Assembly: GCA_000004695.1 (NCBI GenBank)
Contig: CM000150.2
Coordinates: 2,176,001 to 2,240,000 of the forward strand
Origin: Dictyostelium discoideum
Taxonomy: Eukaryota
DNA length: 64,000 nucleotides
Direction: 5' to 3'
Each line of letters opens with the position of its first letter. Positions within the stretch are counted from its first letter, which is position 1. Positions 16,015 to 19,000 of this stretch are shown here, in pieces. The position numbers are program-made.

Positions 16015-19000
16015 TATAAATTGTTTATATTTATAATATAATTTGGTTTTTATTATTTAATAATTTACCTTTTTTATTTTTATTATTAGAGTTAACACCA
16101 TTTGGAATATCTCCACCTTGTTGAGAAACAACAACTGCTAATGAATAGCTAATAGATAATAAGACAATTATTAATAATAATAATAATTTATTTGAGTTCA
16201 TTTTTTTATTTTTTTTTTATAATAAATAAATAGTTTTTTTTTTTTTTTATAAATTGTAAAAAAAAATTTAATTATCATCAAAAAAAAAAAAAAAAAATTA
16301 AAAATTAAATTTAATCATAAATCTCTCCCAAAATCAAGAAAAATTTAAAAAAAATAAAAAAAAAAAAAAAAAAAAATTAAATTATAATGCAAATCGAAGA
16401 AAAGATATTTTTTTTTTTTTTTTTCAGTTAAAATCTCATTTTAAAAATTAATAAAACAACCAACCAACCAATGAAAATACAAAAAAAAAAAAAAAAAATA
16501 ATAACTTAAATTTCTAAAAAAAATAATGGAATTTTTTTTTATTGAATAAAATAACATAAATATAGAGTAATCAAAATACACAAAATGATATAAAAAAAAA
16601 AAAATGAATGTAATCATTCTGTTTTTTTTTTTTTTTTTTTTTATAACCAGTTTAAAGACCATTTTCAAAAACATTGCAGGTTTTTCCAGAGGCATATGAA
16701 TTCATCATAGCAACAATAGTGATATTAGTAACACTGACTTGTTCAGCACCAATACCAGTGATTGTATTGCCATCAACTATAACATGAGCAATTGTTGAAT
16801 TTCCTTTGACACCATTTAATTGGGCTTTCAAGTCGAGCCACACTGGACCATTACTTGTGAAAGAGCTTTGCATATCAATTCTAACACTTCCTTTATTTGC
16901 TATTGTACCATTCATATTTCTAAAAATAATTGAATATTTTAATTGGTCTGCTGCACTTGCAAGATCTTTTTTTTTTCAATAAATATGTAAAAGAAAAAAA
17001 AAAAAAAAAAATTAATTATTTTTATTTACCAGTAAATGTTATTTGGTTTTTATTATTTAATAATTTACCTTTTTTATTTTTATTATTAGAGTTAACACCA
17101 TTTGGAATATCTCCACCTTGTTGAGAAACAATAGCTGCTAATGAATAGCTAATAGATAGCAAGACTATTGTAAATAATAATATTAATTTATTATTTTTGT
17201 TCATTTTTTTTTTTTTAATGAATGAAATTTTTTTTTTTTATGATTTAAATAAAAATTTAATTTTACTATAATCAAAATAAAAATAAATAAAAAAAACTAA
17301 ATAAAATAAATTTAAAATAGATCACCCAATACTTTAGTGAATATTTTTTTTTTTTTTTTTTTTTTTAAAAAATAATTTGTTTTATTTTAATTTAATTTTT
17401 TTGTTTTGTTAATTTTATCACAAATAAATGTACAACAAAATAACACCACTTTTTTCTGTGCACACCTTACCAAATTAAATGAAAATTACAAAAAGGGAAG
17501 AAAATAACAGTTTGTTAAAAAAAAATATATATATTTTAAAATTTAATTATTATTTTTTTTTTCCTTTTTGTTCCATTTTAATATTATTTTTTATATCCAA
17601 TTCATTTTCTATTTTTATATATTTGAAATTAAAAAAAAAAAAAAAAAAGGTTAAGGAAGTACAAGAAATAAAATTGTAAAAATAAAAATAAAAATAAAAA
17701 TAAAAATATTAATAGAAAAGCAAATTCTATATAAAATATCAAACAACAAAAACTAAAATATTTTAATTAATATAAACTTTTTTGATTAAAAAAAAAAATT
17801 TAAAAAAAATATATAAATTAAAGAATAGATTACTCAACAGTGAAAACAATAAAAAAATCATTTTAAAAAAAAAATTATTTGTTATTTATTTTTTTATTTT
17901 TTTTTTATTTTTTTTTACAAATTTATTAAAAAAAATGAAAAAACTAAAATTGTCATTTTAATCATTTTTTATTTTCGTAATTTTAATCATTTATAACTAT
18001 TCTTTAATAGAATTCTTTTTTTAAAAAAAAGAACACCATGGAAGATTTTTGTTTTTTTTTTAAAAATGGATATAAATTATTATTTTTTTTTAAAAAAATA
18101 AAACAAGATAATATCCAAAAATAAATAAAAAAGAAAAAAAAATGCCTCCAAAGATTAAAATAATTACAGGCCCAATTGGTTCTGGGAAAACAACAATTTT
18201 AAATAGAATTAAAGAGTCATATGAAAAGAAATCTTTATTGGTCAAAAGGTTGGATTTTTCGGTGAACCTACTGATTCCACTGTAGCTAATGCTCTCCTAA
18301 AGGATATGTACTCAAAGTTTCCATTTGCTAATGATCAGTTTGAAACTTTACAAAAATACCTATTGGCTGTAGAAGCTAATGATTTTTGTAATGCTTTGTC
18401 ATCGTCAGAGTATGATATTGTTTACTTTGATACATCGGTTTTGTATGGAGTTGTATTTTTACAAACTGCTAATGATTTGAAAATCATAAACAATCAAACC
18501 TATTCAAATTGTCTAAAACGTTTTACTATCAAATGATTTCAAATTAATTTCGAAAATGCTGAAGTAACCATATTAAAAGTCATACCACCCATAGATAAGT
18601 GTATGGAACAAATTAAAGAAAGAGGTAGAGCCTTTGAAGTCGGTAGTTTATCCATGGAATAAAAAATTAATAAATAATGATTTATTAATTTTTTATTTTA
18701 TTTAAAATAGAAACAAAAATAGTTATGGTTTTATTTATTTCTTCTTGTCTAGTGTCATCATTTTCTTTTGGCACTTCACACAATCTAACAATTTTTCCAT
18801 TTATGTACTGAAGATTTGTTAATAAAGCAGTTCTTTCATTAAAATCATTTTCTTCAATACAAATGATATATTCACTGAGGGGCATACCATCTACTCCTTG
18901 ACCAAAAACCATTTTACAATCTTCAAAGTAATCTCTTGAGAATTTATAATGTTTAAAAAGGATAATGTCAATTATTTTTAGCATTTTTTCTTTACAGTCA

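Follow-up and report, generated by a model that had tools for sequence, protein, structure and literature searches.

A decayed deoxynucleoside kinase-like gene fragment at the edge of a strain-specific segment of Dictyostelium discoideum chromosome 1

Introduction

When a stretch of chromosome carries the signature motifs of an enzyme and yet cannot be read as one, one has to ask whether the gene is dead, misread or something other than it seems. The question is raised here by a locus within 64,000 nucleotides of the forward strand of D. discoideum AX4 chromosome 1 (GenBank assembly GCA_000004695.1, contig CM000150.2, positions 2,176,001 to 2,240,000; this whole stretch is referred to throughout as the window, and positions are counted from its first base). 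The DNA is AT-rich (GC about 20-25%) and corresponds to the region around genes DDB_G0268832 to DDB_G0268838. An original prediction, made from the sequence alone, placed a dead extra copy of a deoxynucleoside kinase (dNK) gene at 18143-18660. A dNK-like coding remnant does indeed lie there, on the plus strand, although its limits are slightly wider: it begins with an ATG at 18142 and extends to 18663.

The answer proposed here, to which we would assign a probability of roughly 0.85, is that 18142-18663 is a non-functional fragment (pseudogene) belonging to a dNK-fold family that is confined to the D. discoideum species group, and that it is a broken copy derived from a recurring block of genes in which a PrimPol-like gene and a YqaJ exonuclease gene accompany the dNK-like one. 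Taken by itself the locus is minor: this part of chromosome 1 is variable and rich in repeats, and the fragment adds one more dead gene to it. The pseudogene is real but ordinary, and greater interest attaches to the uncharacterised parent block that is found in sister species.

The coding remnant and its lesions

Membership of the dNK superfamily is established by comparisons of several kinds. When its frame is repaired, the translated remnant matches PF01712 (dNK) in Pfam over residues 8-168 with 33.1 bits (E 6e-8; the gathering cutoff is 27 bits), and other P-loop families score lower, matching through the Walker A region alone. The P-loop (GPIGSGKT, 18169-18192) and the lid (RGRAFE, 18621-18638) both survive, as had been predicted, and so does the catalytic-base motif EP (18264-18269); at 18429-18437, where dNKs have ERS or DRS, the remnant has DTS. 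A search among 5.8 billion proteins returned 19 homologues with E-values down to 5e-95, so that the resemblance lies far beyond chance. When all proteins of the family were used as tblastn queries, the sole match in the window was 18142-18659, i.e. neither a second copy nor a displaced C-terminus was found within it.

The lesions were read from an alignment with two relatives, locus L001 of D. discoideum (GCA_054859385) and locus L002 of D. cf. discoideum (GCA_054859205), the intact 263-codon gene of the latter serving as reference. Starting from the ATG at 18142 there is an open reading frame (ORF) of 47 codons (MPPKIKIITGPIGSGKTT...), while the remaining protein is carried in the frame of 18144 (...GFFGEPTDS...YFDTSVL...IKERGRAFEVGSLSME followed by a stop), where it is interrupted by a TGA at 18534-18536. 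The change of frame had originally been described as a 1-nt shift at 18235-18245; it is actually a 4-nt deletion between 18222 and 18223, inside a GAAAGAAAAG repeat. The in-frame TGA is present as described, but it did not arise as a point nonsense mutation: two nucleotides (AA) have been inserted within 18515-18518 and two deleted at about 18542-18545, about 27 nt past the insertion, and this pair of indels puts the 27 nt between them out of frame, so that bases encoding Met-Ile in the frame of the family (YYQMISN) are read as a stop. Selenocysteine and programmed frameshifting were considered for this TGA and ruled out, since it is the +2/-2 pair, seen by comparison with intact copies, that creates it.

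The most extensive lesion is at the 3' end. Homology to the family ceases at 18661-18663, where about 90 C-terminal codons have been lost, and it is this truncation at ~18661 that makes the locus short; the shortness itself had been noted correctly (about 30% relative to functional dNKs). Every element of the fold past the lid is gone, from the helix at residues 173-185 onwards and including the strand at 201-207 and the helix at 210-221, whereas an intact member of the family (P0002) has a complete alpha/beta fold of about 200 amino acids (aa). With three frame-breaking indels and its 3' third missing, the window copy would encode at most a 47-aa P-loop peptide, which is not expected to have any kinase function. 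It may best be pictured as the bidirectional promoter region together with the first two-thirds of a gene from the parent block.

The strain-specific segment

The remnant is a fragment of ~0.7 kb at the edge of a block of ~3.7 kb, which contains in addition DDB_G0268832, a GIY-YIG-like gene and DDB_G0268836 (Table 1). Orthologous loci, anchored on the conserved neighbour DDB_G0268838, were compared in two other D. discoideum strains (L088 and L089), in D. cf. discoideum (L090) and in D. firmibasis (L091), and the DNA from window ~17950/17990 to 21684/21739 is absent from all four. A presence/absence polymorphism is thereby established for the 3.7-kb block that carries the fragment, not for the full parent blocks discussed below. 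The left junction of the block falls at the very base where dNK-family homology begins, and the resemblance to other copies is limited to 17861/17990-18661, where DNA identity is 87-90%; beyond 17861-18661 the window has no counterpart in the flanks of L001 and L002.

The most economical account of these observations is a gain or replacement of 3.7 kb in the reference-strain lineage, the dNK fragment having arrived, it would seem, as the left end of the segment gained or swapped in. The event looks like a replacement and not a clean insertion, because L088 and L089 have a different 1.6-kb piece at this spot, which includes one extra unit of the adjacent tandem array. That same difference, and the fact that the region is a dynamic tandem array, could also be taken to favour the opposite history, in which the block is an old resident gene cluster, ancestral at this site and lost independently in the other strains and species. 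This we consider improbable: absence from two D. discoideum strains, from D. cf. discoideum and from the outgroup D. firmibasis would require several independent losses, the flanks in D. firmibasis are separated by about 430 bp, the left junction falls where dNK-family homology starts, and the fragment is ~90% identical in DNA to copies located elsewhere.

A search around the block for terminal repeats or a target-site duplication yielded AT-rich low-complexity matches alone, and there are no tRNA genes in the window that might have served as insertion targets. A paralogue of DDB_G0268832 (18685-19137) with at least 90% identity, DDB_G0293518, lies on AX4 chromosome 6, and is a candidate sibling or donor locus for the block; the D. 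cf. discoideum locus of ACTFIY_011146 is another possible donor. In practical terms, the window copy cleanly marks a structural variant of 3.7 kb that is strain-specific and belongs to the reference lineage.

The dNK-like family

The source of all 19 closest proteins is the D. discoideum species group, represented by D. discoideum, D. cf. discoideum, D. dimigraforme and D. citrinum. One of the 19 is DDB_G0294238 (P0003) of AX4, which is uncharacterised; many are fragments or chimeric gene models, and the cluster to which P0002 belongs has 12 members. A second search, using a dictyostelid-only profile, added no further taxa. An exhaustive HMMER scan of 1.84 billion representatives brought in two divergent dictyostelid-like paralogues, P0022 (33% identical) and P0024 (29%, from D. 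cf. discoideum), and beyond these only ordinary dNK-family proteins at 24-33% identity, most of them anonymous metagenome sequences; among the canonical relatives that come nearest, a few bear the label deoxyadenosine/deoxycytidine kinase or thymidylate kinase.

These results bear directly on the idea that the locus is a decayed recent duplicate of a host deoxyadenosine kinase (dAK), deoxyguanosine kinase (dGK) or deoxycytidine kinase (dCK). The Pfam family and the fold are shared, among solved structures the family profile matches a bacterial-type dAK best, and the dAK and dGK of D. discoideum are themselves bacterial-like, all of which would fit. However, no relative outside the family exceeds 33% identity (in the HMMER scan, which included no direct alignment to the D. 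discoideum salvage kinases DddAK and DddGK), so that the window copy is not a recent duplicate of the canonical salvage kinases; moreover the nearest 19 relatives are all of the same uncharacterised family, which is marked out by DTS, by the lack of Trp after EP and by a long C-terminal tail, and which has genomic partners of its own. A salvage-kinase origin of this kind is accordingly very hard to credit. What stands of the original prediction is that this is a dead gene of the dNK superfamily; that it is an extra copy of a known dAK, dGK or dCK does not.

Family members with an intact frame are 256-263 aa long, and intact P0002 scores 45.2 bits on PF01712. Its AlphaFold model (pLDDT, the predicted local distance difference test score, 83; pTM, the predicted template modelling score, 0.79), for which the underlying alignment included canonical dNKs, has as its best Foldseek matches human dCK and Drosophila dNK, with E ~3e-10 and target-normalised TM-scores of 0.7-0.8. 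A profile built from four dictyostelid sequences alone finds the dAK of M. mycoides (2JAQ, E 1e-10), NDUFA10 (2e-9) and dCK (7e-6). The suggestion that the fragments might match a different NTPase family therefore fails, with PF01712 the best Pfam match and both the structural and the profile comparisons leading to dCK, dNK and dAK.

In an alignment of 22 sequences the invariant columns are G15, K16, E43, Y58, F107, R162, R164, E167 and Y175, with Q72 nearly invariant, and they span the P-loop, general base, pocket Tyr, aromatic Phe and lid of dCK. In dCK structures Glu53 is the base, Arg128 hydrogen-bonds the 5'-OH and Gln97 reads the nucleobase (PMC1802566). The position of the motif Arg is where the family departs from its relatives. 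The DTS of the window copy had been taken for a lesion of ERS, but it is not decay, because DTS is found in every close family member, intact ones included (the divergent paralogues have DSS in P0022 and DGC in P0024). In alignment with M. mycoides dAK the Thr falls opposite the motif Arg, i.e. the Arg of the (E/D)R(S/H) motif is absent from the family, as is the Trp normally found five residues after the catalytic Glu, and there is an added low-complexity tail of about 60 aa. Between intact copies of two species the ratio of non-synonymous to synonymous substitution rates (dN/dS) is 0.21 (dS 0.33, dN 0.07), and the Arg-less protein is thus under purifying selection. Nothing was found in the literature on this family or on its parent element.

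Three further sequences may be mentioned. P0045 (metagenomic, 230 aa) is an otherwise canonical dNK-family protein that also has DTS in place of ERS, so that loss of the motif Arg is not unique to dictyostelids. P0018, from D. citrinum, is a chimeric model in which the first ~46 residues, dNK-like, are joined to a coiled-coil protein, while in P0020 (D. discoideum ACTFIW_010534), also chimeric, a GIY-like N-terminus is joined to a dNK-like C-terminal tail; family fragments are, in other words, scattered and have been taken up into adjacent gene models.

Coding capacity of the locus

One might still imagine that the locus is a functional spliced gene, with introns that bypass the frameshifts. 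A hypothetical protein of 114 aa is in fact annotated in the D. discoideum assembly GCA_054883475.1, at L006 10602-10996, which corresponds to window 18142-18536. The sole GT-AG removal that gives 114 aa is of the 50 nt at 18179-18228, and since this deletes the GKT of Walker A and the reading frame still ends at the TGA before the lid, the annotated model does not represent a kinase. The putative intron has an AT content of 74% and its homologue in the intact copies is coding sequence, and the missing C-terminal third is beyond rescue by any pattern of splicing. The chance of a functional spliced gene is consequently very slight. Judged by its sequence the 114-aa model is probably an annotation artefact, and the entry in at least one new assembly, lacking GKT and lid, should be a pseudogene.

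As for the idea that the gene is an intact, additional dNK gene whose apparent lesions are sequencing or assembly errors, which the AT-richness of the region and the position of two of the indels in short A-containing repeats might encourage, it has a negligible probability and is refuted unless both assemblies share the same reads, because the independently deposited GCA_054883475.1 (L006) is base-identical over window 16282-21144, because the 13 sites at which the two assemblies differ over 20.5 kb are all lengths of long A/T runs or of one AAT repeat and none lies in coding sequence, and because the 3' truncation is a loss of homology and not an indel.

The parent block and its possible nature

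In loci L002, L003 (D. dimigraforme) and L005 the dNK-like gene stands head-to-head with a PrimPol-like gene of 395-398 aa, whose product matches human PrimPol (5L2X, E 1.5e-12) and has the primase DxD and sxH motifs, and this in turn adjoins a YqaJ exonuclease gene (PF09588, 128 bits). Upstream in the block are three conserved genes with no Pfam match (F22, F12/F35 and F39), to which L002 adds a DUF5906/VapE-type superfamily 3 (SF3) helicase and a GRF zinc-ribbon protein. D. discoideum L001 has this block as well, in decayed form. In L007, on the 58-kb contig JBTAPH010000006.1 that carries P0024, the order F22, F12, YqaJ, PrimPol, dNK-like is kept with proteins that are 27-48% identical. The linkage is thus established for YqaJ, PrimPol and dNK in L002, L003, L005, the decayed L001 and the divergent L007, and for F22 and F12 in L002, L003 and L007. 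Copies at separate sites within one genome are 92-96% identical; D. cf. discoideum and D. dimigraforme still have intact copies of recent duplication, and the 58-kb contig represents a second, deeply diverged lineage.

The repeated block suggests a replication module, possibly virus-derived or mobile. By analogy with the dNK and thymidine kinase (TK) enzymes of large DNA viruses, the intact protein would most likely supply or handle nucleotides for the block's own DNA replication. One may go further and suppose that the D. discoideum complex harbours a family of integrated elements, virus-like or self-replicating and so far undescribed, of which the fragment in the window is a fossil. Their replication module would combine a PrimPol-type primase, a YqaJ exonuclease, a D5/VapE-type SF3 helicase and an Arg-less dNK-fold protein whose acceptor site is altered and whose substrate or role is new; this is offered tentatively, as a possibility that we would still rate below even odds. 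The locus points to an uncharacterised dNK-like family that is under purifying selection, lacks the motif Arg, and in wild Dictyostelium genomes keeps company with genes for primase, exonuclease and helicase. If it is true that the blocks are integrated viruses or a new mobile element, they would offer a rare handle on the DNA viruses of social amoebae, of which, to our knowledge, there is no isolate.

A number of points weigh against the interpretation given here, either of the fragment or of the block from which it is thought to derive. The window copy differs from its closest relative, L001, by 8 synonymous and 8 non-synonymous changes, and the resulting dN/dS of 0.25, based on these small counts, gives no sign of relaxed constraint, although most of the changes may lie on the other lineage; the copy may also have some residual role at the RNA or peptide level. 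No donor of the 3.7-kb block was found. The F1 and F3 genes of the block are only 26-47% identical to the genes that neighbour dNK elsewhere, and they are in inverted order; with identity at this level, it may be that the dNK fragment did not leave a full element in company with the genes now beside it. For the parent block, Pfam searches of 20 ORFs recognised no transposase or integrase, nor was a capsid gene or a terminal repeat identified, and the dNK-like protein has no relatives in IMG/VR viral contigs. A search for viral relatives through YqaJ gave 237 matches, generic and at ~30% identity, and none of the 80 loci examined encodes another protein of the block. Since no integrase, capsid gene, terminal repeat, viral relative or literature was found, a viral or mobile nature of the parent block is something that we infer and do not observe.

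Two minor observations concern these loci. Beside the divergent dNK-like gene of L007, at 8215-9429 on the minus strand, a 404-aa ORF matches Pox_VLTF3 with 22.5 bits, which is below threshold (cutoff 25); VLTF3, a poxvirus late transcription factor, is a hallmark of nucleocytoplasmic large DNA viruses, and this match is the sole hint pointing towards virion genes such as those for capsid or packaging ATPase. In D. dimigraforme there is a 237-bp repeat resembling a miniature inverted-repeat transposable element, with copies ~99% identical at L003 7068-7304 and 10752-10988 and at L004 11758-11998, 12515-12752 and 16804-17041; one of these copies lies directly against the dNK-like gene on its 3' side, which is probably why the C-terminus of P0004 is altered.

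Relation to known systems

With the dNKs of PF01712 (human dCK and dGK, Drosophila dNK, and bacterial dAK and dGK such as 2JAQ) the family shares its fold as well as the P-loop, the Glu of EP as general base, the pocket Tyr and Gln, the aromatic Phe and the RxRxxE lid. It differs from them in having Thr for the motif Arg (Ser or Gly in the divergent paralogues), no Trp, a tail of ~60 aa and at most 33% identity, and the window copy is additionally frameshifted and truncated. The salvage kinases DddAK and DddGK of D. discoideum, reportedly characterised by Sandrini et al. in 2007 in J Mol Biol, share with it organism and superfamily; in contrast to them, the family, which appears to be a separate one, is multi-copy and mostly decayed in D. 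discoideum proper, is without the motif Arg, and is linked to PrimPol and YqaJ in sister species.

The dNK and TK proteins of large DNA viruses (Megaviridae, poxviruses, iridoviruses, pithoviruses, nudiviruses and the herpesvirus TK) match the fold at the same level as cellular enzymes do (E 5e-10 in BFVD), and they too are set among replication genes (primase, helicase, exonuclease), as the intact dNK-like members are. Against this, the family has no close viral relative (none in IMG/VR; identities of 14-22% in BFVD), and the Dictyostelium copies are chromosomal, with host-like AT content. NDUFA10, an accessory subunit of mitochondrial complex I, is the second-best solved group for the dictyostelid-only profile (E 2e-9). 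It keeps the dNK fold for a role not known to involve kinase activity. The dNK-like family, unlike NDUFA10, shows no sign of mitochondrial targeting or of a complex I context, and it retains P-loop, EP and lid.

As a pseudogene, the window copy resembles the fragmentary pseudogenes found in segmental insertions, with which it shares disabling indels, truncation at a breakpoint and presence or absence according to strain. It differs from processed pseudogenes in that it is not retro-processed, including as it does promoter-side intergenic DNA and having no poly-A signature.

Features of the window and of related loci

Table 1 Coordinates of the features discussed. Positions are those of the window unless another locus is named.
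Feature	Position	Strand	Remarks
Block of ~3.7 kb	17990-21739		AX4/ACTFIT lineage alone; junctions 17950-17990 and 21684-21739
Upstream segment	17990-18141	+	By alignment, homologous to the PrimPol-dNK intergenic (promoter) region of intact copies
5' coding part	18142-18222	+	Original frame, Met1-Tyr27, including P-loop; 4-nt deletion right after
Second coding part	18223-18514	+	Readable in the frame of 18144 alone; EP, conserved nucleoside-pocket Tyr and Gln, DTS
Out-of-frame stretch	18515-18545	+	From +2 insertion to -2 deletion; apparent in-frame TGA 18534-18536; intact copies have CLTFYYQMISNINF
Lid region to breakpoint	18546-18663	+	New stop TAA 18661-18663; ~90 C-terminal codons gone
DDB_G0268832	18685-19137	-	150 aa; F3 small-protein family, which also adjoins dNK-like genes elsewhere (26-36% aa identity)
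F1-family gene, multi-exon	19569-20777	+	Weak GIY-YIG-like motif; F1 lies directly downstream of dNK-like genes in other loci
DDB_G0268836	21263-21601	-	112/115 aa; second F3-family gene, at the right end of the block
Recurring block	L002 311-11100; L003 1900-11350; L005 7400-11100; L001 8160-10600; L007 766-7634		Decayed in L001

The F1 family, represented in the window by the gene listed in Table 1 and elsewhere at L002 11247-11945 and L003 11489-13126 (both on the minus strand), has a G[IV]Y...YIG-like motif; the match to GIY-YIG, at 17.4 bits (E 0.006), is below the Pfam cutoff, and the assignment should be taken as a hint. To the left of the block lie a gene for a secreted protein of 162 aa, at 16652-17204, and, at 13100-17430, a tandem array of ~1-kb units, each encoding a protein of 146-162 aa with an N-terminal signal-like segment, and the number of units at this locus varies among D. 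discoideum strains and among species.

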